Positions 7,787 to 38,544 of a stretch of 42,039 nt of DNA are shown here, piece by piece (within the stretch, counting starts at the first letter, position 1; every line of letters starts with the position of its first letter). Origin of the DNA: a virus (taxonomy: Duplodnaviria > Heunggongvirae > Uroviricota > Caudoviricetes). The DNA lies in IMG/VR virus record IMGVR_UViG_2740892429_000003; one strand, given 5' to 3'. The translations under genes were made by a program, and so were the position numbers. The notes beneath the pieces are model-generated. The model was not told the origin of the DNA, made no database searches, and worked only from the letters and a program-made list of their open reading frames with translations.

Positions 7787-8851
7787 CTATAATCCTCTCT
7801 GCAAAGCAGTGCTGGATGGCATATCCTGCGCACCGCGCGCTTCGCACATCATATCCATGTACCACGCCTGGCCCCTTGTGTCACCAGTGTACATAATCCC
7901 GCGCACAATATAAACGCCATCCGTTGCGATGCTGGCAGGCTGCGATGTGGTGCCGCTGAGCGTGATATTTCCGTCTGTGTTCTGGTCGGTGATCTGCCCA
8001 CCGGCCATCGCGATATCGTTGTTCGACAACGCGGTACGATACACGGAAGCCTGATCCAGCTGAATGAGCCCGTTAACCCGGATGTTCGGATTAATAAGCG
8101 CACGGACGTTTACGCCGTTACCGATGGTCTGCTGAGGCATACCAATAAGCCCCGTGGCACTGTTGAGCACAATCGCTTCGTGAACATATTCGTTATTCGC
8201 CACCATCTGGCGCTGACCGTCCACGAATTGCCATGTTGCGCCACATTGCCCGGCTACGTTATCCATTAGATGCCGCGTCATGCCAAAGAGCACCCGTCCC
8301 CGGGGGAATACAGTAGCAGGCATTTCAGGCGTCAGGCCTTCGGTCGCGCCTTTGGCTTCGAAGTCTTTCATCAGCGCACGGTTCACATCAGCGACCGTGT
8401 AACCGGCAGCCAGCGTCTGTGAGGTTATACTGGTGGCAAAAGCCAGATCAGTATCTGCTGCCTGAATCAGGACGTAGGAATCAACCGGACTGTCTTTTCC
8501 TGTGACCGAGTAGCGAATTTCACCGCTGAAAATTAGTCCGTAGTTGCGGCCATCACTCTGGCCCACGTCCGCCGCGTCAACTTCCCGCACAGTCCCGACG
8601 TCACTTGCCGACACCTCCGGCGCGATACCGTCGTAACCCGCAATCAGACGCACTTTCGAAAACTCCTGCCCGGTGATTCGGTTCACAGTATCTGCCGAGA
8701 GGTTATAAATTTTGATAGTCCCTACCCGGGACGCGCTGCTGATGTTGAACCAGTCGATCGTAAAGGTGACTTTAAAATCACTTAGCTCAATTCCCTGACC
8801 GTTCTCGTCCACAAGCTGCAGCTCGAAATGTCTCATCCAGTTCTGTGACAT
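7787..8851 (-). CDS. Tail protein, gpD-like (late control D / baseplate hub family)
   Basis: 354 aa; position downstream of tape measure and small tail proteins; inference from synteny. Confidence 0.5.
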   Translation of the reverse strand: MSQNWMRHFELQLVDENGQGIELSDFKVTFTIDWFNISSASRVGTIKIYNLSADTVNRITGQEFSKVRLIAGYDGIAPEVSASDVGTVREVDAADVGQSDGRNYGLIFSGEIRYSVTGKDSPVDSYVLIQAADTDLAFATSITSQTLAAGYTVADVNRALMKDFEAKGATEGLTPEMPATVFPRGRVLFGMTRHLMDNVAGQCGATWQFVDGQRQMVANNEYVHEAIVLNSATGLIGMPQQTIGNGVNVRALINPNIRVNGLIQLDQASVYRTALSNNDIAMAGGQITDQNTDGNITLSGTTSQPASIATDGVYIVRGIMYTGDTRGQAWYMDMMCEARGAQDMPSSTALQRGL

Positions 8852-8853
8852 GC

Positions 8854-9156
8854 TTACTCCGTTGATACCAGTAAATGGCTGCGACCGCCCAGGTCAGTTT
8901 TTGTGGGGTAATCCTGTGTGTTGTCATCACAGACCACCACCAGCTTAAAACCAAGCCCCATACAGGCGTACTGCGCCAGCAGGTCGGCACCAGTGACGAG
9001 AGGAATACCGGAGATTACCGGCTCCCCTCTGTCGTTCTGCAGGTCCATAATCCAGTACAGATCGCGCCATATGATGCTAATCCGCCAGGTAACACCACCT
9101 AAGACGATGCTGAACTGCTGGTTGTCCGCTGTCAGCGGAATTTCCTGAATTGTCAT
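8854..9156 (-). CDS. Tail-associated protein
   Basis: 100 aa; translationally coupled in tail cluster. Confidence 0.4.
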   Translation of the reverse strand: MTIQEIPLTADNQQFSIVLGGVTWRISIIWRDLYWIMDLQNDRGEPVISGIPLVTGADLLAQYACMGLGFKLVVVCDDNTQDYPTKTDLGGRSHLLVSTE

Positions 9157-9743
9157 TAGCCGCCTCCCAGTAATGACGCCACGTTACCCGTAATGCTTTT
9201 CAGCAGTGAAGTATCTGGAGGCTTTGTGGTTTTGTTGCCGCTGTTCTGTACCGCCGACGTGCTGGCCCCTTCCTTCATGTTGGTTTTATCCGCGACGGTA
9301 ATCTGCTGTGTCCGGGAGATAAGGACCTCCCTCAGGGTAAGGACGGCGGACAGGACGTTTTCGGTTGTCTTGTCCGTCGTCACTTCCAGCGCCCGGATCA
9401 ACATGTTGCTGTACAGCCGTTTACCGGTTACCACATCGAAGGGGATACGGCTTTCCTGCAGATCCAGTAGCTCCTGATACGTCTGCTGAGGACTCAGGCC
9501 GAGCAGGCTGGTAGCCGTCAGGTTACTGGCAAAATCCAGCAATGTGCCGCCACCGGCGAAACCAACCTCCATCACCACTTCTGACGGTTTTTTATAGGCA
9601 TGATCAGCGACAGCAGCCCCGACCTCTACCGGATGCTCGGTTATTTCAAGCATATCTGTATGCTTCTCTGAAATAACAACACTGGGAACAATCATTCCTA
9701 TTTTTCTGCTCTGCTGATGAAAAAGTGTAGAGAGAATATCCAC
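9156..9743 (-). CDS. Tail-associated protein
   Basis: 195 aa; directly downstream of tape measure gene. Confidence 0.4.
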   Translation of the reverse strand: MDILSTLFHQQSRKIGMIVPSVVISEKHTDMLEITEHPVEVGAAVADHAYKKPSEVVMEVGFAGGGTLLDFASNLTATSLLGLSPQQTYQELLDLQESRIPFDVVTGKRLYSNMLIRALEVTTDKTTENVLSAVLTLREVLISRTQQITVADKTNMKEGASTSAVQNSGNKTTKPPDTSLLKSITGNVASLLGGG

Positions 9744-27759: not shown

Positions 27760-27972
27760 TTAAGCCTTTTTATCGTTTTGTGAGCCATACAACAGCCAAT
27801 TAGGGTCGCAATCCAATGCGATAGACATTTCAAGAAGATAACGTGGCCGAGCAATAACACCACTTTCAATTCTGTTTATTGCCTGCTGGCTCACTCCTGT
27901 GAGCTCAGCCAACGTAACTTGCGTCATTTTGAGTTCTTTACGTCGTTCTTTTACTCGGGTCGCTAAGGTCAT
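27760..27972 (-). CDS. Cro-like HTH (XRE family) regulator
   Basis: 70 aa from ATG with GAGGTG SD (longest ORF begins at TTG 27990); HTH QVTLAELTGVSQQAINRIESG; divergent from CI-like gene. Confidence 0.7.
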   Translation of the reverse strand: MTLATRVKERRKELKMTQVTLAELTGVSQQAINRIESGVIARPRYLLEMSIALDCDPNWLLYGSQNDKKA

Positions 27973-28092
27973 TGCTTTCACCTCATACAATTTTAGTGGT
28001 ATTTAGCAACAACAAATGAGGTTTGTCAAATACAACAAAAATTGTTTTTAATGTGGGTATACACATTAATACAACCCAGAAGGACTAATCCC
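27973..28092. promoter_or_regulatory. Divergent promoter/operator region of the immunity switch
   Basis: AT-rich 120-bp spacer between divergently transcribed Cro-like and CI-like genes; individual operators not resolved. Confidence 0.5.
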
Positions 28093-28716
28093 ATGTCTCT
28101 CGCAGCCCGTTTTAAAGCACGTCGTTTGGAATTAGGAATGACTCAAGTGGAAGTAGCGAATTCTGCAGGGGTTAGCCAACAATCCATAGAATCCATCGAA
28201 AGTGGACGAACCAGAAAGCCACGCAATCTTCTGGATTTGGCTAAGGCCTTGAAATGTAGCCCAGACTGGCTACTGAACGGTAAAAATATTATGCCTCTCA
28301 CAGAGATAAGTACCAGACGCATACCTATATTAAGTTACGTTCAGGCAGGAGAGCTTACAGAAGCAAGAGACATAACAGATCTGACAGGGGAATTTGAATA
28401 TATTTTGGCAGACTCTGACATTCCAGAAACATGCTTCGCATTACGTATTGATGGCGACAGCATGCAACCAGAGTTTAAAGAAGGAGACATTGTTATCATC
28501 GATCCTGATCTATGTCCTGCACCAGGGGAGTTTGTTGTCGCCAAAAACGACGGTCACGAAGCTACATTTAAAAAATACCGTCCATTAGGAATCGGCATCG
28601 ACGACTTTGAATTAATCCCCCTAAATCCTGATTACCCTATTTTTCGTAGTGCAGATATGAACTTACAGATCATAGGTGTAATGATCGAACACCGTATTTA
28701 CCGCCGTAAACGTTAG
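28093..28716 (+). CDS. CI-like repressor (HTH + S24 LexA-type autopeptidase)
   Basis: 207 aa from ATG with AAGGA SD; HTH QVEVANSAGVSQQSIESIESG; Ala-Gly cleavage site (VQAGEL); catalytic Ser in GDSMQP and Lys in VVAK. Confidence 0.85.
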   Translation: MSLAARFKARRLELGMTQVEVANSAGVSQQSIESIESGRTRKPRNLLDLAKALKCSPDWLLNGKNIMPLTEISTRRIPILSYVQAGELTEARDITDLTGEFEYILADSDIPETCFALRIDGDSMQPEFKEGDIVIIDPDLCPAPGEFVVAKNDGHEATFKKYRPLGIGIDDFELIPLNPDYPIFRSADMNLQIIGVMIEHRIYRRKR

Positions 28717-32280: not shown

Positions 32281-32370
32281 CCCTTCTTCATAGACGCCCG
32301 GTTACACGCCGGGCGAAATCCAAAAAGCTATTGGAATTTTTACGGCTATTTGTTTTTATAGAGGTATTAC

Positions 32371-33873
32371 GTGTCAACTTTGAGAATCGGTATGGAAATC
32401 CAAGAGTTTGTAAGTCACTATAAAAACCACCCTGTTCTATTCATTGGAACAGGATTTAGCCTACGGTATCTAGAAAACTCATTTAGCTGGGATGGTCTTC
32501 TTTTGAGTGTCGCAATGGAACTAACCGGTAATGCTGAGTTTTACTACGATTTGAAAGCTGAAAGCCTAGAAGGTGACGACTATCGATATGATATCTTAGC
32601 TACAAAACTTGAAGATATTTTTAATAAAAAGCTGGCAGAAGATCGTAACGGTAAGTTCAAAGACATCAATGATGTTTTCTATGAGCACATGAAAAAAGGG
32701 AAAAAACTAAGTCGATTCAAAATTTATTTAACTTCAATACTTAAAGACCTAAAGATAAAAGAGTCAATGATGGAGGAAATAAACAGCTTAATAAAAACAA
32801 GAAAAAACATAGGCTCCATCATTACAACAAACTACGACCAACTCGTAGAGAACATCTTCGAATTTAACCCACTGATTGGTAACAACATTCTTTTAAGTAA
32901 CCCATACGGTTCAGTTTACAAAATACATGGCTGTGTTAGTGATCCTAACAACATAATTATCACAGGTGAAGACTACGCAAACTTCGACAATAAATATGAG
33001 TTAATTCGCGCTCAATTACTCTCAATATTCATACACAACCCTATCATATTTATAGGGTATAGTATTAGCGATAAAAACATTAAGTACTTATTAAAAACCA
33101 TATTCTCATACGTTGACTTAAATACCGAACTTGCAAAAAGGATAAAAGATAATTTTCTTTTGGTTGAATACGAAAAAGACAGCATGTCAACTGAAATTAC
33201 GGAGCATGACATAGATATAGAAGGCATGTCTATCATAAGAATAAACAAAATAAAAACAAACAATTACAAAGCTGTATATGATGCCATCTCGGGACTAGTT
33301 TTGCCAGTATCCGCAATGGACATAAGAAAGGTTCAAAAAGTTTGGAGTACCATCAAAAGTGGTGGTGAGATAAAGGTTAAAATTACAGAAAATTTAGATG
33401 AACTTCGCAATGATGAAATGGTCATTGCTGTTGGTTCAGAAAGAACCGTACAATATGTTTATCAAACAAAATCTGAAATGATACAGAACTATTTTAAAAT
33501 AGTTGACGAAGCAAACTCTCAGCTTATCGCATTACTGAATAAGCAAACTATAGCTAATAGCGAACACTTTCCAATATACGCTTTTAGTTCTATCTGCCCT
33601 GAACTAGAAAATACCGAGACATACAGAAAACGGCAGCTAGATAAAATCATTGGTAACCTTTCTCGAATTAAAACATGTAAGAGTGATGCTGTGTCTATTG
33701 ATGAAATACTAAAAGAAACGAAAGAGTATAAAGTTGCTAACACGATTATGTATTGCGTACTAAACGATACTATTTCATTGAAACAACTACGAGATTATTT
33801 AACAAAACCAGGGCATAAAATTGATACCCAATACAGGCGACTTTTATGCTTGTATGATTATTTATCATATTAA
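32371..33873 (+). CDS. SIR2-family (SIR2_2 / ThsA-like NADase motif) protein with uncharacterised C-terminal domain; candidate single-gene defence cargo
   Basis: 500 aa; GTG start with GAGG SD; motifs GTGFS (26-30), TTNYD (152-156), KIHG (184-187), FIGYS (227-231); very low GC; flanked by hairpins 32295..32315 and 33899..33921. Confidence 0.8.
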   Translation: MSTLRIGMEIQEFVSHYKNHPVLFIGTGFSLRYLENSFSWDGLLLSVAMELTGNAEFYYDLKAESLEGDDYRYDILATKLEDIFNKKLAEDRNGKFKDINDVFYEHMKKGKKLSRFKIYLTSILKDLKIKESMMEEINSLIKTRKNIGSIITTNYDQLVENIFEFNPLIGNNILLSNPYGSVYKIHGCVSDPNNIIITGEDYANFDNKYELIRAQLLSIFIHNPIIFIGYSISDKNIKYLLKTIFSYVDLNTELAKRIKDNFLLVEYEKDSMSTEITEHDIDIEGMSIIRINKIKTNNYKAVYDAISGLVLPVSAMDIRKVQKVWSTIKSGGEIKVKITENLDELRNDEMVIAVGSERTVQYVYQTKSEMIQNYFKIVDEANSQLIALLNKQTIANSEHFPIYAFSSICPELENTETYRKRQLDKIIGNLSRIKTCKSDAVSIDEILKETKEYKVANTIMYCVLNDTISLKQLRDYLTKPGHKIDTQYRRLLCLYDYLSY

Positions 33874-33898
33874 GCATTCTTAACTTCGGTTATAAAAA

Positions 33899-33921
33899 GC
33901 CGCCATTTTGGCGGCTTTTTA
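33899..33921 (+). terminator. Rho-independent terminator after SIR2-like gene
   Basis: GCCGCC-attttg-GGCGGC followed by TTTTTA; preceded by an A-run (potentially bidirectional). Confidence 0.65.
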
Positions 33922-33949
33922 TTTATTAAATCCAACGGGTCCTTACTTG

Positions 33950-36025
33950 ATGCAAAAACTTTGGTTAGACCTCGAAACTTTCAGCGAAATCCCAATAAAA
34001 AACGGCACCCATGTCTATGCAGAAGGAGTCGAAATCATGTTATTCGCATGGGCAATCGACGAAGACCCCGTCAGCGTACACGATTTAACCACAGACTATA
34101 ACTTGCCGACACGACTACTGACAGCTCTCAGCGATGAGAGCGTACTAATATATGCACACAACAGCCATTTCGATCGCACCATGTTGCGCCATGCATTGCT
34201 GCACACTCCCCAATGCGTTGTTGCAGGTAGTGCCAAACGCTGGCGAGACACAATGGTGCAGGCGCTGGCGCACGGTCTCCCGGGGTCTCTGGGGGAACTC
34301 TGCGAAATACTCGGCGTCCCGCAAGACAAAGCGAAGGACAAAGAAGGTAAAGCGCTGATCCAGCTGTTCTGTAAGCCCCGCCCGAAAAACAGCAAACTGC
34401 GCCGTGCCACCAGCAAAACCCACCCGGAAGAATGGCGGCGCTTTGTTGCTTACGCCGGACTGGATATCGAGGCAATGCGCGAAGTCTATAAACGTCTGCC
34501 GAAGTGGAATTATCAGGGGACAGAGCTGGCGCTCTGGCATCGTGATCAGCAGATCAACGACCGGGGCGTCTGCATGGACATGCAACTCGCGCGCGCTGCG
34601 ATCGAAGCGGTAGACCAGGAGCAAAAGCGCCTGGCAAAGCGTACACAGGAAATGACTGATGGCGAAGTGCAGGCAGCCACACAACGGGACGCGTTGATTA
34701 AGCACATTGTTGAATCCTACAGTGTGGAGCTACCAGACATGCAACGCAGTACTCTGGAACGTCGTATTGCCGACCCCGATTTACCATCTGCCGTGAAAGA
34801 ACTGCTGGCTATCCGCCTGCAAGCCAGTACTACCAGCACCAGTAAATACAAGGCACTGATGAAAGGCGTAAGCCACGACGGGCGCTTACGCGGTACGCTA
34901 CAGTTCTGCGGGGCGTCACGTACCGGTCGTTGGGCCGGACGGCTATTCCAGCCCCAGAACCTTCCCCGCCCTTCACTAAAACAGGAACAAATAGACGAAG
35001 GCATCGAAGCACTGAAAGCCGGATGTGCAGACCTGCTGTTTGACAATATCATGGAACTAACCAGTTCAGCGTTACGTGGCTGCATTATCGCGCCAACAGG
35101 CAAAAAACTGGTGGTAAGTGACTTGTCAAACATTGAAGGCCGTATGCTGGCATGGCTGGCGGGAGAAGAATGGAAACTGAATGCATTCAGAGAGTACGAC
35201 GCCGGAACGGGTCCGGACTTATATAAACTGGCGTATGCAAAAGCTTTCGATATTGCACCAGATGATGTTGATAAACACATGCGTCAGATCGGTAAAGTCA
35301 TGGAACTCGGTCTGGGTTATGGAGGTGGTGTATCGGCTTTCATCACTTTTGCTCTGGTTTACGGTCTCGATCTCGACGAGCTGGCGAACGCCGCACTGCC
35401 AAACATTCCCCGCGATGTTATCCGCGAGGCGAAAAGCTGGTACGACGAATCGGTTAAACGTAAGTCGACCTTTGGCCTTTCCGAGCGTGTATTCATCGCA
35501 TGTGACTCGCTCAAGCGCCTGTGGCGCAGGGCGCACCCGGCGACCTGCGATTTCTGGTACGAGCTGGAGCGCACTGTCCGCACAGCAATCGCCACACCGC
35601 AAAAAACATTGTATTGCGGTTATCTTAAAATCCGCCGCGATGGCGCGTGGCTGCGCATACAGCTACCATCCGGACGCGCTGTATGCTACCCGTCTCCGGT
35701 TATCGAACAAGGGAATATCACCTACATGGGTGTTAACTCTTATTCGCGTAAATGGCAACGACTCAAAACCTACGGCGGAAAGCTGGTGGAGAACGTCACC
35801 CAGGCGGCCGCCCGCGACGTTCTGGCCGGAAATATGCCGCTTATCGAAGATGCCGGTTACAGCATTGTGCTGACGGTACACGACGAGGTGATCACCGAAT
35901 CACCTGACACAGAAGATTTCAACGATAAAGAGCTTTCCGCGCTTCTCTCCAATAACCCCGAATGGGCGCCCGATATCCCACTGAACGCTGGCGGTTTTGA
36001 GGCGTACCACTACCGTAAGGATTAA
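33950..36025 (+). CDS. DNA polymerase A family with N-terminal 3'-5' exonuclease domain
   Basis: Exo I motif LWLDLETFS; pol motifs [28 protein letters not shown]; start placed at ATG 33950 because the longer ORF (33908) would include the upstream terminator hairpin. Confidence 0.85.
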
Positions 36026-36239: not shown

Positions 36240-36461
36240 ATGTCATTTAAATATCGGGACAGTCCGCTTTATTACCGGGCTGCGAGGGAGGCCTTGCGCC
36301 TTGAGCAGTCCGGCGAATATGACCGGGCAGCGAAGGTCTGGGCCAAGGCTAACCGCCAGTCACGTAACGAACTGAATCAGGACTGGAGCGAACGCCGGTC
36401 TGATTTTTGTCTGATGCAGAACATGCGCGAAAAGCGTAAGGCGGTGAGCGATGACTTGTGA
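36240..36461 (+). CDS. Small hypothetical protein
   Basis: 73 aa (MSFKYRDSPLYYRAAREALR...), AGGAG SD 8 nt upstream of ATG. Confidence 0.4.
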   Translation: MSFKYRDSPLYYRAAREALRLEQSGEYDRAAKVWAKANRQSRNELNQDWSERRSDFCLMQNMREKRKAVSDDL

Positions 36462-36933
36462 GCAGACCATTCTTGACATGTGCTGCGGCTCTCGTATGTT
36501 TTGGTTCGACAAGGAGGACAAGCGCGCCGTGTTCAGTGATATCCGCGCCGAGCAGCATGAGCTTTGCGACGGTCGCCAGTTGGTTATAAGTCCGGACCTT
36601 ATAGCTGATTTCCGCGCCCTTCCCTTTGCCGATAACACTTTCCCTGTCGTCGTTTTCGATCCGCCGCACCTCGAGCGCGTCGGCGATAACGCGTGGATGA
36701 GGAAAAAGTACGGGCGGCTCAACAAAGAAACATGGCGCGATGATCTTCGCGACGGCTTCGCCGAAGCATTCAGGGTATTGCGGACCCACGGTGTACTCAT
36801 ATTCAAATGGAACGAAACGCAGATCCCGGTAAGCAATATCTTGGCGCTGACCGACGAGAAGCCGGCCATATGGCAACGAACCGGAAAAGCCGACAAAACC
36901 CACTGGGTTATTTTCGTCAAAGGTGTGGAATGA
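36451..36933 (+). CDS. Small DNA amino-methyltransferase (probable N6-adenine)
   Basis: 160 aa; motif I-like LDMCCGS followed by motif IV-like DPPH. Confidence 0.55.
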   Translation: MTCEQTILDMCCGSRMFWFDKEDKRAVFSDIRAEQHELCDGRQLVISPDLIADFRALPFADNTFPVVVFDPPHLERVGDNAWMRKKYGRLNKETWRDDLRDGFAEAFRVLRTHGVLIFKWNETQIPVSNILALTDEKPAIWQRTGKADKTHWVIFVKGVE

Positions 36934-37226
36934 TGGCCTACGAACGTGAAAGCCTTATCGAAAAGCACCTCGTCGCCGAAGTGAAAAAGGCTGGCGGGGT
37001 CGCCTTTAAGTTCGTGTCACCCGGTCGCCGCTCGGTACCGGATCGCATTGTCCTGCTACCCGGCGGTCGCATCGTCTTTGTCGAATGCAAAGCGCCAGGC
37101 AAACCACCACGGCCTGACCAGTTACGCGAGCACGAACGGCTGCGTGCGCTGGGCTTTACCGTGGTGGTATTAGATAGCAAAAATCTGGAGGGGATATTGT
37201 GCGGGGAGCCTATTACAACGAAATAG
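36930..37226 (+). CDS. VRR-NUC domain nuclease
   Basis: 98 aa from tandem ATG; PD...E-x-K signature (VPDRIVLLPGGRIVFVECK). Confidence 0.7.
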   Translation: MMAYERESLIEKHLVAEVKKAGGVAFKFVSPGRRSVPDRIVLLPGGRIVFVECKAPGKPPRPDQLREHERLRALGFTVVVLDSKNLEGILCGEPITTK

Positions 37227-38227
37227 ACCCTAACGCAGCACAATGGCTGCGTAACCTTATTGCTGCAGGTCATATCGCCCCGGGTGAAGTTGATGAAAGG
37301 AGTATCGAAGATGTCGCACCAGACGACTTGCGCGGATTCACACAGTGCCATTTCTTCGCCGGGATCGGCGTCTGGTCTTATGCTCTGCGTCTGGCCGGAT
37401 GGCCGGATAACAAACCGGTCTGGACAGGAAGTTGCCCGTGCCAGCCTTTCAGCTCGGCTGGTAAAGGCGCTGGGTTTGATGACGAGCGGCACCTATGGCC
37501 AGCACTATTCCACCTCATCAGCGAGCGACGCCCTAAGCTGGTATTTGGCGAACAGGTTGCGGGAGTCAATGCCTGGTTCGATCTTGTACAAACTGACGTG
37601 GAAGCAGTGGACTACGCCTTTGGGCTTGTCCCGTTTCCGGCTGCGGGCGTCGGTGCCCCGCATATCCGAGATAGAGCGTATTGGGTGGCCGACGCCAGCG
37701 GCGAGCGATCACAGCGGTGGCGAAAGCGCCTCAATAGCATTGAGGAAGATGTCTGGAGATCGTCGACCGTCCGGCAACACGCTACACAGCTCCCTGCGGA
37801 ATTTTGCTCACCTGGCGGGGTGGTACACCCCAACCTGCAACACAAACCCACAGCCGGAGACAAAACGCGGTCTAGAAACCTTAGCGGGACTATCCAGATT
37901 AGCGGGATGGCCGACAGTGACGACGATCGACAACAACCAAGTTCGTGCCGAGGGCGCAGCGGCCAATCATACCGAACGGGGAACGACCCTCGGCGGCGCT
38001 GCGAGAATCTGCGGCCCAATACGATTAACGGCTGCTGGGATGGTGCTGACTGGCTCCTCTGCCGGGATGGTCGCTGGCGGCCAGTTGAATCCGGCACATG
38101 CCCGTTGGCTAATGGGATTACCTCCAGAGTGGGACGACTGCGCGCCTACGGCAACGCGATAGTCGCACCAGCTGCCGCAACATTCATCCGCTCGTTTATG
38201 GAATGCGCAGGATACGACCTTATTTAA
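37199..38227 (+). CDS. DNA cytosine-5 methyltransferase (possible frameshifts in target-recognition region)
   Basis: Motif [10 protein letters not shown], motif [18 protein letters not shown], motif [12 protein letters not shown], motif X-like YGNAIVAP in this frame; middle segment is Arg/Ser-rich while overlapping frame 37260..38162 looks more protein-like. Confidence 0.65.
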
Positions 38228-38544
38228 TGCCACTCACATCTGGCATGATACCGTCCAGAAGGTAATTGCTTATATACAACGGAGCCGCCCATGGCATAAG
38301 TATAAGCATGAAGTTTTGTCCAGAAGTCCCCATAAACTAGTATTGGGGCTAAAAATTTTGGATCGCTAACCATAGATGTAGCAGGAAGCTCGAAACCTTT
38401 AGAAAGAATGTTTACCAGTGAAGGGTAATTTTCAAAATCAGTGCTATTCCCGCCCACCTCTAAAGCATCCAGTTCAAAGTCGAGCACTCCACCATTTTTG
38501 TAATACTCCGGAACAGTTAACCCTGATGTTAACAAAGTAGCCAT
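38224..38544 (-). CDS. Antisense low-GC hypothetical protein (cargo gene inside early operon)
   Basis: 106 aa; perfect AGGAGG SD 6-7 nt upstream of ATG; low GC; opposite strand to all neighbours. Confidence 0.5.
   Translation of the reverse strand: MATLLTSGLTVPEYYKNGGVLDFELDALEVGGNSTDFENYPSLVNILSKGFELPATSMVSDPKFLAPILVYGDFWTKLHAYTYAMGGSVVYKQLPSGRYHARCEWH

Follow-up and report, generated by a model that had tools for sequence, protein, structure and literature searches.

A gene for a SIR2-family protein of 500 residues lies between the gene for an SSB-like protein (DUF2815) and the gene for DNA polymerase A (polA) in IMG/VR virus record IMGVR_UViG_2740892429_000003, a member of the Caudoviricetes. 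The complete stretch of 42,039 nucleotides is referred to as the window. It is practically certain that the protein belongs to the family known as PDC-S25 or SIR2_2, and it is of the SIR2_2/ThsA type by sequence, by catalytic residues and by fold. We consider it probable, from the combined comparative analyses, that the gene is a self-contained moron of a temperate Escherichia coli phage which would deplete NAD and thereby abort infection.

A first-pass annotation, made from the letters of the window, had proposed a single-gene defence protein with a novel sensor domain. A role in defence is indeed the best-supported reading. The implied novelty does not hold, as the family has already been listed as PDC-S25 in PADLOC, as phrog_2695 in PHROG and as "SIR2_2" by Rousset et al.; the family itself is a computational candidate only. 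The gene has been identified correctly, but what was identified is no surprise: it is a catalogued candidate, well suited for testing, and not a new type of system. What the present analysis adds is the definition of a hypervariable slot in the phage genome, the origin of the cassette by mosaic recombination, the characterization of the family as solo and defence-associated, and a candidate specificity patch at residues 408-485.

A ThsA-type SIR2 protein with an unassigned C-terminal region

The reading frame exists and is translated as first annotated, with a GTG start and 500 codons. A random open frame of this length has a probability of about 1e-17 (calculated with about 0.075 stops per codon at the local GC content of about 33%). 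The GC content of the gene is 0.30-0.35 and thus lower than that of either flank (0.47-0.52 upstream, 0.54-0.58 downstream). An alternative start codon, ATG at 32392, is located seven codons downstream and leads to a protein of 493 residues; this start is used by RefSeq and by most homologs outside the phage lineage. The GTG start is preceded by a Shine-Dalgarno sequence (AGAGG), which is conserved in a Klebsiella phage copy of the gene that has ATG where the window has GTG. Because the Klebsiella phage conserves this strong Shine-Dalgarno sequence and has the upstream ATG, the N-terminal extension by seven codons may be real in the E. coli/Klebsiella phage lineage.

Four motifs typical of SIR2_2 and ThsA had been read from the translation: GTGFS (residues 26-30), TTNYD (152-156), KIHG (184-187) and FIGYS (227-231). 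They are found at these residues, and the core of each motif shows no variation when 25 or 66 homologs are aligned. The assignment is borne out by a profile hidden Markov model (HMM) search. The Pfam model SIR2_2 (PF13289) matches residues 149-246 with 80.5 bits, against a gathering cut-off of 24.5 (E 1.7e-22), and is the only SIR2 model matched, the classical sirtuin model (Pfam SIR2, PF02146) being unmatched. Neither is there a Cys4 zinc ribbon, the sole invariant cysteines in the alignment of 25 homologs being C188 and C493. Among the PADLOC models, ThsA1 matches with E 3.4e-18, and the ThsA HMMs align only with model positions 85-270 of 478. In a phmmer alignment to BcThsA (6lhx_A), N154 is placed on N112 and H186 on H152, which are catalytic residues in BcThsA. 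Both N154 and H186 are invariant in the 66 homologs, and 86 of 300 alignment columns are invariant in the SIR2 domain as a whole (residues 1 to about 305). When solved structures were searched by sequence, only the SIR2 domains of ThsA (7uxt, 6lhx, 8wc0, 8bto) and of KomC were retrieved. An AlphaFold2 model computed from the 66 homologs (mean confidence, pLDDT, of 77) was compared by Foldseek and matched only the defence sirtuins ThsA, DSR2 and KomC. The TM score of about 0.35 corresponds to the N-terminal 300 residues or so, and the C-terminal part of the model is unmatched.

Over its full length, the protein is matched by PADLOC model PDLC04968 of PDC-S25 (E 5e-158, residues 4-500 aligned with model positions 4-514 of 517) and by phrog_2695, which is of unknown function (E 1.4e-154). 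A second PADLOC model, PDLC04967, matches with E 4.7e-56.

The first-pass annotation had recognized neither a SLOG domain nor any other domain in the C-terminal region, and Pfam, PDB profile and fold comparisons agree with it. Across 23 diverse family members this region has no Pfam match even at E <= 5. With a profile no sequence of the PDB is matched, and there is no structural match, including in a viral structure library. SLOG and Macro domains were found neither by HMM (at the same threshold in the same 23 members) nor by profile or fold. That the region is not a SLOG domain also follows from the ThsA HMMs, which end where the SIR2 domain ends.

Directly behind the SIR2 domain, a segment comprising residues 313-363 has the pattern LPVSAMDIRKVQ...GGxIxV...AVGS and equals the catalytic domain in its degree of conservation (14 of 51 columns invariant, mean majority frequency 0.74). 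Its pLDDT is only 31-55 in both AlphaFold runs. As judged from these models, the segment may fold only upon oligomerization or upon binding of a partner or ligand. The all-helical domain that follows (residues 367-500) is modelled confidently, with pLDDT values of 80-96.

We searched 1.84 billion representative proteins with residues 300-500, using HMMER, and obtained 92 proteins. Apart from fragments, all of them share the architecture of SIR2 domain plus C-terminal region, with the latter at approximately residues 295-500 of a protein of about 500 residues. The possibility that the C-terminal region is fused to other effectors is rejected, as it never occurs behind a different effector among these 92 matches. 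Matches to the giant repeat proteins P0155 and P0188 were identified as compositional artefacts. About a dozen clusters of proteins with approximately 135 residues (including P0156, P0158, P0164, P0168 and P0174) correspond exactly to the C-terminal helical domain and begin at a conserved internal methionine (E-M-M-x-N-Y-F). These are probably truncated gene calls; they might conceivably represent a free-standing version of the domain.

Within the helical domain, residues 408-485 form a hypervariable patch. The mean majority-residue frequency is 0.45 in the patch and about 0.74 elsewhere in the protein, and pairwise identity drops to 26-46% where the remainder of the protein shows 75-90%. Nonsynonymous divergence (dN) in the patch exceeds that of the remainder by a factor of 2-4; for reasons given below, only this higher dN is reportable. 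At the DNA level, similarity to the Klebsiella copy stops at 33597. A sensor that determines specificity would be expected to show just this combination of a strongly constrained enzyme and a single surface that evolves fast, and residues 408-485 are thus likely, on the variation among homologs, to be the surface that recognizes the trigger.

More than 1,700 homologs were found. The best 120 homologs all have about 500 residues, match over their full length with at least 55% identity, and originate from Gammaproteobacteria and Firmicutes. Carriers include 74 E. coli genomes and 313 plasmid records. We compared 13 genomic contexts and found no neighbour in common, so that a conserved partner gene is rejected and the single-gene organization that had been proposed applies to the family. 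No TIR, ThsB or KomA/B gene is linked to the SIR2 gene in any of the 13 contexts, and there is neither an antitoxin-like partner nor a conserved small ORF beside it in the contexts examined. In agreement with the first-pass annotation, the window contains no gene for TIR, HerA, Argonaute, KomA/KomB or another defence partner.

The contexts are diverse. Apart from the slot between DUF2815 and PolA in E. coli and Klebsiella phages, a homolog (WP_021514374) occurs in a P2-like prophage between the genes for portal protein gpQ and replication endonuclease gpA. This site is a defence hotspot, and the homolog is listed there as the single-gene system "SIR2_2" (Table S5A in Rousset et al. 2022, PMC9122126). 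Other copies reside in a chromosomal island adjoining yecA, together with a restriction endonuclease, a PD-(D/E)XK nuclease, a DUF262 protein and a type I restriction-modification system; in a mobilizable element that is integrated at ssrA and carries an ABC-3C system; in a Salmonella integrase island, directly adjoining PD-Lambda-2 (B/C); and in a Firmicutes element, where the gene is accompanied by a DRT reverse transcriptase (UG5-nitrilase) and a KilA-N protein (PDC-S22). Solo insertions are found in Methylobacter between ubiD and hemY and in Aeromonas adjoining thrC. Three temperate phages of Firmicutes carry the gene at positions in the lysogeny module. In phage Javan227, it is situated between integrase and repressor. 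In phage BK5-T, it is ORF30, which lies between endolysin and integrase and has its own annotated promoter and terminators, and in phage phBC6A51 it adjoins the lysis cassette. The E. coli copies from the P2 hotspot, the yecA island and the ssrA element as well as those from Javan227 and BK5-T are all full-length PDC-S25 proteins. Finally, a plasmid of Pantoea soli (NZ_CP032706.1, 5,593 bp) consists essentially of rep, rop, a gene for a helix-turn-helix (HTH) protein and the SIR2 homolog. This plasmid is non-mobilizable, and its rep gene overlaps the full-length SIR2 homolog (57% identity) by 14 bp, from which arrangement the two genes appear to be co-transcribed.

A variable slot between DUF2815 and PolA

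The features of the cassette and its immediate surroundings are listed in the Table.

Table. Features of the SIR2 cassette and of its borders (window coordinates).
Feature	Position	Strand	Characteristics or evidence
Stem-loop just 3' of the DUF2815 stop codon	32295..32315	+	-16.1 kcal/mol, z -3.7; left edge of the variable slot
Cassette leader	32316..32370	+	Shine-Dalgarno sequence AGAGG at 32360-32364; conservation limited to the phage copies from E. coli and Klebsiella
SIR2-family gene	32371..33873	+	HMM, translation, homolog matches
ThsA-type SIR2 (NADase-type) domain, residues 1 to about 305	32371..33285	+	Pfam, PADLOC, phmmer, Foldseek
Codon of predicted catalytic residue N154	32830-32832	+	alignment to BcThsA
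Codon of predicted catalytic residue H186	32926-32928	+	alignment to BcThsA
Conserved segment, residues 313-363	33307..33459	+	candidate regulatory or oligomerization element; low AlphaFold confidence
All-helical C-terminal domain, residues 367-500	33469..33870	+	no assignable fold; AlphaFold
Hypervariable helical patch, residues 408-485	33592..33825	+	proposed specificity or trigger-recognition surface
Bidirectional intrinsic terminator closing the cassette	33892..33922		-20.1 (+) / -20.6 (-) kcal/mol, z -5.15 / -6.05
Divergent 5' end of polA, about 97 codons, co-transferred with the cassette	33950..34240	+	right-hand recombination tract

The flanking genes are as first annotated. DUF2800 is a PD-(D/E)XK nuclease, DUF2815 belongs to the Enc34 family of ssDNA-binding proteins, and DNA_pol_A is a family A polymerase. 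The hairpin that had been noted behind the DUF2815 stop codon is real and lacks a T-tract. It had been listed among the marks of a discrete unit; as the hairpin is common to relatives that lack the SIR2 gene (variants DEC5E and DEC5B), it belongs to the phage backbone and not to the cassette. Variants with Nmad5 have an analogous hairpin of different sequence. In the leader, a weak extended -10 promoter can be proposed by eye (TTGGAA at 32331-32336, a spacer of 17 nt, and TGtTTTTAT at 32351-32359), and this candidate is conserved in the Klebsiella copy. The terminator behind the gene, also described in the first-pass annotation, is built on a perfect inverted repeat of 14 nt; its counterpart behind the Klebsiella copy has another stem sequence. 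No Rfam family was matched at threshold, and the weak matches are all on the terminator hairpin. The start of PolA is most likely ATG at 33950, as in RefSeq, and not TTG at 33908, which makes the terminator intergenic. This strong bidirectional terminator is thus located only 28 nt upstream of the polA start with no promoter in between, an arrangement also found in the Klebsiella relative. Transcription of polA, and of the replication and methylase genes that follow it, might pass the terminator by antitermination or leakiness.

The window recurs with 100% identity in E. coli strain 21KM1392, as a prophage that is integrated beside yfhL. Related prophages were found in 159 of 5,426 complete E. 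coli genomes, and vB_EcoM-606R2, -689R2 and -611R5 are related sequenced virions. The SIR2 gene is present in only 5 of the 159 related prophages. In one of the five, which carry this exact allele, the SIR2 gene is interrupted by IS1 (NZ_AP045766.1, 1198885-1205286); this could reflect a fitness cost or a chance event.

Our survey of the slot (32281-34240) covered 60 evenly sampled and the 30 top-ranked rows of the 159 related prophages. The first-pass annotation had assumed that the gene splits a module which is normally contiguous. This is contradicted by the survey: none of these relatives has PolA directly after DUF2815, and the slot is always occupied among those listed, with well over ten arrangements. 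The cargo comprises SIR2, Nmad5 (alone or accompanied by ORFs on the reverse strand), an unknown reverse-strand ORF of 209 residues, antirepressors (BRO-N, Ant, AntA-AntB), HNH and NUMOD4 endonucleases, and IS1. Even in DEC5B, which has no annotated gene in the slot, the same filler of about 730 bp is found as in DEC5E. The DUF2815/PolA junction is therefore a general hotspot for accessory genes and not a purely defensive one. We found no earlier description of this junction as a hotspot. The slot between the SSB-like gene and PolA in this prophage family, which is common in E. coli and Klebsiella, represents a further phage hotspot that is worth mining.

At the left edge of the slot, no variant differs from the others until the DUF2815 stop codon has been passed. 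At the right edge, sliding identity to other variants stays at 0.32-0.78 as far as about 34220 and reaches 0.97-1.00 from 34247 onwards, so that divergence extends for about 290 bp into polA. Accordingly, the exchanged segment reaches from about 32315 to about 34240 (approximately 1.9 kb) and includes the first 290 bp or so of polA. An insertion in the manner of a transposon or integron is rejected: there are no target-site duplications or att-like repeats, and repeat pairs of 12-14 nt occur at chance level. The earlier description of the cassette as inserted has thus to be replaced. Because the divergence runs into polA and flanking repeats are absent, the sequence comparison indicates that the segment was acquired by homologous mosaic exchange with a phage of the same type, and not by de novo insertion.

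A phage lineage of this type does exist. A SIR2 gene with 71% identity occupies the same slot in a cryptic Klebsiella prophage of about 15 kb, which adjoins sbcB and was encountered on 307 contigs. This prophage has decayed: its DUF2800 and VapE genes are truncated and it retains few structural genes. Its SIR2 gene (8001-9506) is intact. That an intact gene is found in a decayed prophage on so many contigs suggests that the SIR2 gene has been domesticated in Klebsiella.

Several other features of the prophage were observed. The gene for a LexA-family (CI-like) repressor (27760-28716) is encoded upstream of the replication module with SIR2 and on the same strand. The genes for a Cro-like HTH protein, VapE primase, Q antiterminator, lysis and structural proteins are on the opposite strand to this module. 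Downstream of PolA (36451-38227) are two orphan methyltransferases, namely a small class I S-adenosylmethionine-dependent enzyme (PADLOC MTase_II, E 1e-72) and a C5-cytosine methyltransferase. A VRR-NUC gene lies between them and a cognate restriction enzyme is absent; the orphan methyltransferases probably serve the phage for self-protection against host restriction. The 106-residue ORF at 38224-38544 (minus strand), between the cytosine methylase and a SNF2 helicase, is another moron-like insertion in the replication module. It is hypothetical in RefSeq and has no Pfam or PADLOC match. At the far end of the prophage, two ORFs (330-977 and 1272-1817, both on the plus strand) are encoded opposite to the adjacent tail genes. 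The second of these is a hexapeptide-repeat acyltransferase (Pfam Hexapep, E 1e-13); it may represent a moron for lysogenic conversion, similar in type to O-antigen acetylases.

Proposed function and alternative explanations

According to the reading that we favour, the PDC-S25 protein would be inactive until a superinfecting phage is sensed. The activated SIR2 domain would then hydrolyse NAD+, as is the case for ThsA, DSR1/2, SIR2-HerA and KomC, and the depletion of NAD+ would abort the infection, so that the lysogen population and with it the resident prophage would be protected. The C-terminal 190 residues or so would represent the regulatory and sensor part of the protein. Within this part, residues 313-363 may couple sensing to the active site or drive oligomerization, and residues 408-485 may set which phage component is recognized. 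As in DSR2, recognition would most likely consist in the direct binding of a protein. A function in defence is supported by the genomic contexts: homologs recur in the P2 defence hotspot and in islands with PD-Lambda-2, DRT, PDC-S22 and restriction systems, those of Firmicutes phages occupy moron positions in the lysogeny module, and the gene has stayed intact in the degraded Klebsiella prophage.

We also propose, more tentatively, that PDC-S25 is a compact "mini-DSR", a self-contained sensor-effector of 500 residues. A previously undescribed module, made up of a switch (residues 313-363) and a helical domain with a hypervariable face, would bind a specific phage protein and unleash the ThsA-type NADase. 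Alleles from different hotspots (the present slot in the replication module, the P2 gpQ-gpA site, the lysogeny modules of Firmicutes phages) would recognize different phages and mediate competition between phages. This extended proposal is possible, and we regard it as rather doubtful in its entirety. If it were true, the sensor fold would be new, and PDC-S25 would become a validated family of single-gene defence proteins that is widespread, its more than 1,700 members coming from Proteobacteria and Firmicutes. If PDC-S25 is active, it would rank among the smallest self-contained SIR2 defence proteins, and being native to E. coli it would be easily testable. A series of alleles that differ mainly in one patch of about 78 residues is convenient for mapping the sensor surface against phage specificity.

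Several points weigh against the favoured reading. NADase activity, trigger and abortive infection are deduced from comparison. The SIR2 gene is co-oriented with the replication genes and a consensus promoter scan calls no promoter upstream of it, so that expression in the lysogen is only presumed. The slot also holds cargo that clearly serves the phage (Ant, BRO-N, Nmad5, homing endonucleases). In the patch, synonymous sites are saturated (proportion of synonymous differences, pS, of 0.6-0.9), which makes the Nei-Gojobori method unusable for positive selection. In the searchable literature we found no experimental test of any PDC-S25 member; this includes publications on standalone SIR2 proteins, on the validation of PDC candidates and on the expression of BK5-T ORF30. 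One paper that mentions PDC-S25 treats it as a software prediction. One study validated 4 of 8 other PADLOC candidates that it tested, PDC-S25 not being among those eight. A mild point against defence, which falls short of a refutation, comes from the closest relative that has been tested, the "SIR2" protein pFR88. It was among the "additional tested systems" for which no protection against eight coliphages was reported (Table S2B in Rousset et al. 2022, PMC9122126), and the seven P4 systems found protective in that study do not include it.

The position of the gene raises the question whether it serves the phage itself. The SIR2 enzyme would then be made together with the replication module during lytic growth, and it would either counter host immunity, for example by modifying a host factor with ADP-ribose or by consuming the NAD+ on which other defences depend, or remodel nucleotide or NAD metabolism. 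Placement in an early lytic operon is plausible from the co-orientation with the surrounding DUF2800, DUF2815 and PolA genes. It would be in line with the strong Shine-Dalgarno sequence conserved in the phage lineage, with the failure of the scan to call an independent promoter and with the phage-serving nature of Nmad5, Ant and BRO-N in the same slot. We nevertheless consider such a role unlikely. Full-length family members also occur solo between housekeeping genes, on small plasmids, in non-phage defence islands and in a decayed prophage, where there is no lytic programme, and the homologs of Firmicutes phages are found in the lysogeny module and not in the replication module. Furthermore, with only 5 carriers among 159 related prophages the gene must be dispensable for replication, and its catalytic dyad is of the NAD-cleaving type found in abortive-infection effectors. 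The SIR2 fold supports several NAD-dependent reactions and the family has been assigned as NADase by comparison only. In the manner of classical sirtuins or SirTM, the protein might instead act on a regulatory target, as an NAD-dependent protein deacylase or as an ADP-ribosyltransferase. This we regard as highly improbable, given that the classical sirtuin model is unmatched, that a Cys4 zinc ribbon is missing and that all neighbours by sequence and fold are defence sirtuins of the NADase type.

The mobile nature of the family could also be explained by selfish stabilization. A latent NADase toxin would aid the retention of a mobile element, by addiction, post-segregational killing or the exclusion of non-phage competitors, with phage defence at most a side effect. 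The family is always found on mobile or recently acquired DNA, including the 313 plasmid records and the 5.6-kb Pantoea plasmid with little besides rep, rop and the SIR2 homolog, and a fitness cost would be consistent with the IS1 element that interrupts one of the five copies in E. coli phages. Addiction, however, could not result from a single constitutively toxic protein, and no context contains an antitoxin-like partner or a conserved small ORF. As the gene has repeatedly been placed in hotspots and islands of defence, which speaks for a role against phages, we judge this explanation to be distinctly unlikely. It is also conceivable that the protein is an orphan ThsA-like effector which is activated in trans by a small-molecule signal (for example a cyclic ADP-ribose isomer or a modified nucleotide), produced by a TIR protein or another sensor encoded elsewhere in the genome. 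Residues 313-363 would then be the ligand site, for which their high conservation, their glycines and a low model confidence that suits a site ordering upon ligand binding would be appropriate; the SIR2 domain is closest to those of ThsA and KomC, both of which are ligand-activated. Against this stand the lack of a SLOG or Macro domain, the lack of a linked TIR, ThsB or KomA/B gene in the 13 contexts, and a hypervariable surface which suits recognition of a macromolecule better than that of a conserved small ligand. The solo spread across phyla at 55% identity or more among the best 120 homologs is hard to reconcile with a signal generator encoded by the host, and an orphan effector thus seems very unlikely to us.

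Comparison with characterized SIR2 systems

With respect to PDC-S25 and phrog_2695 there is no difference at the family level; the protein is a member, with the same full-length match and the same single-gene organization. It also resembles what is known as a phage moron, a concept from the comparative genomics of HK97 and HK022 which describes an extra gene that is present in some of several closely related phages and has a deviant base composition. The SIR2 cassette is found in 5 of 159 relatives, has a GC content of about 0.33 between flanks of 0.5-0.57, and has its own terminator.

The closest characterized SIR2 domain is that of ThsA from the Thoeris system, as seen in sequence searches (7uxt with E 3.8e-9, 6lhx with E 3.7e-8) and in fold comparison (8bto with E 9e-9). 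Asparagine and histidine of the active site align, and ThsA is similar in length (about 480-500 residues). The two proteins differ in their C-terminal halves. That of ThsA is a SLOG domain, while that of the window protein is not and lacks a fold match. In addition, no ThsB/TIR gene is found in the window or adjoining the homologs, which distinguishes the locus from Thoeris. A ThsA-like SIR2 effector domain is likewise shared with KomC of Kongming (8zsf, E 2.4e-4, and fold matches), with SIR2-HerA (Nezha) and with SIR2-APAZ/pAgo (SPARSA). These proteins, however, are subunits of about 260-400 residues which need KomA/B, HerA or pAgo, respectively, whereas the window protein is neighboured by DUF2815 and PolA.

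The "SIR2" protein pFR88 from the P4 satellite hotspot is similar in being a single-gene SIR2_2 protein from a hotspot of E. coli phages or satellites, with 33% identity over the SIR2 domain (E 9e-33). Among the PADLOC models it is also best matched by PDC-S25, though only at positions 10-342 of 517; the listed pFR88 sequence is truncated at 399 residues. As only the first two-thirds of the model are matched, pFR88 is considered to be a paralog with a different C-terminus.

In its overall architecture, a single polypeptide with an N-terminal SIR2 domain of the NADase type followed by an all-helical C-terminal region, the protein is most like DSR1 and DSR2, and DSR2 chains are among its top fold matches. 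At 500 residues it has only half the size of these proteins (about 1,000-1,250 residues). Dsr1 models do not cover it: the NCBIfam model gives 11 bits against a cut-off of 1,400, and the PADLOC model is restricted to residues 149-278 (E 3.7e-5). Beyond the SIR2 part, the C-terminal domain has no detectable structural likeness to DSR2 (query-normalized TM score, TMq, of about 0.33). In functional terms, DSR2 is nevertheless the closest analogy, as its helical domain senses a phage protein directly.

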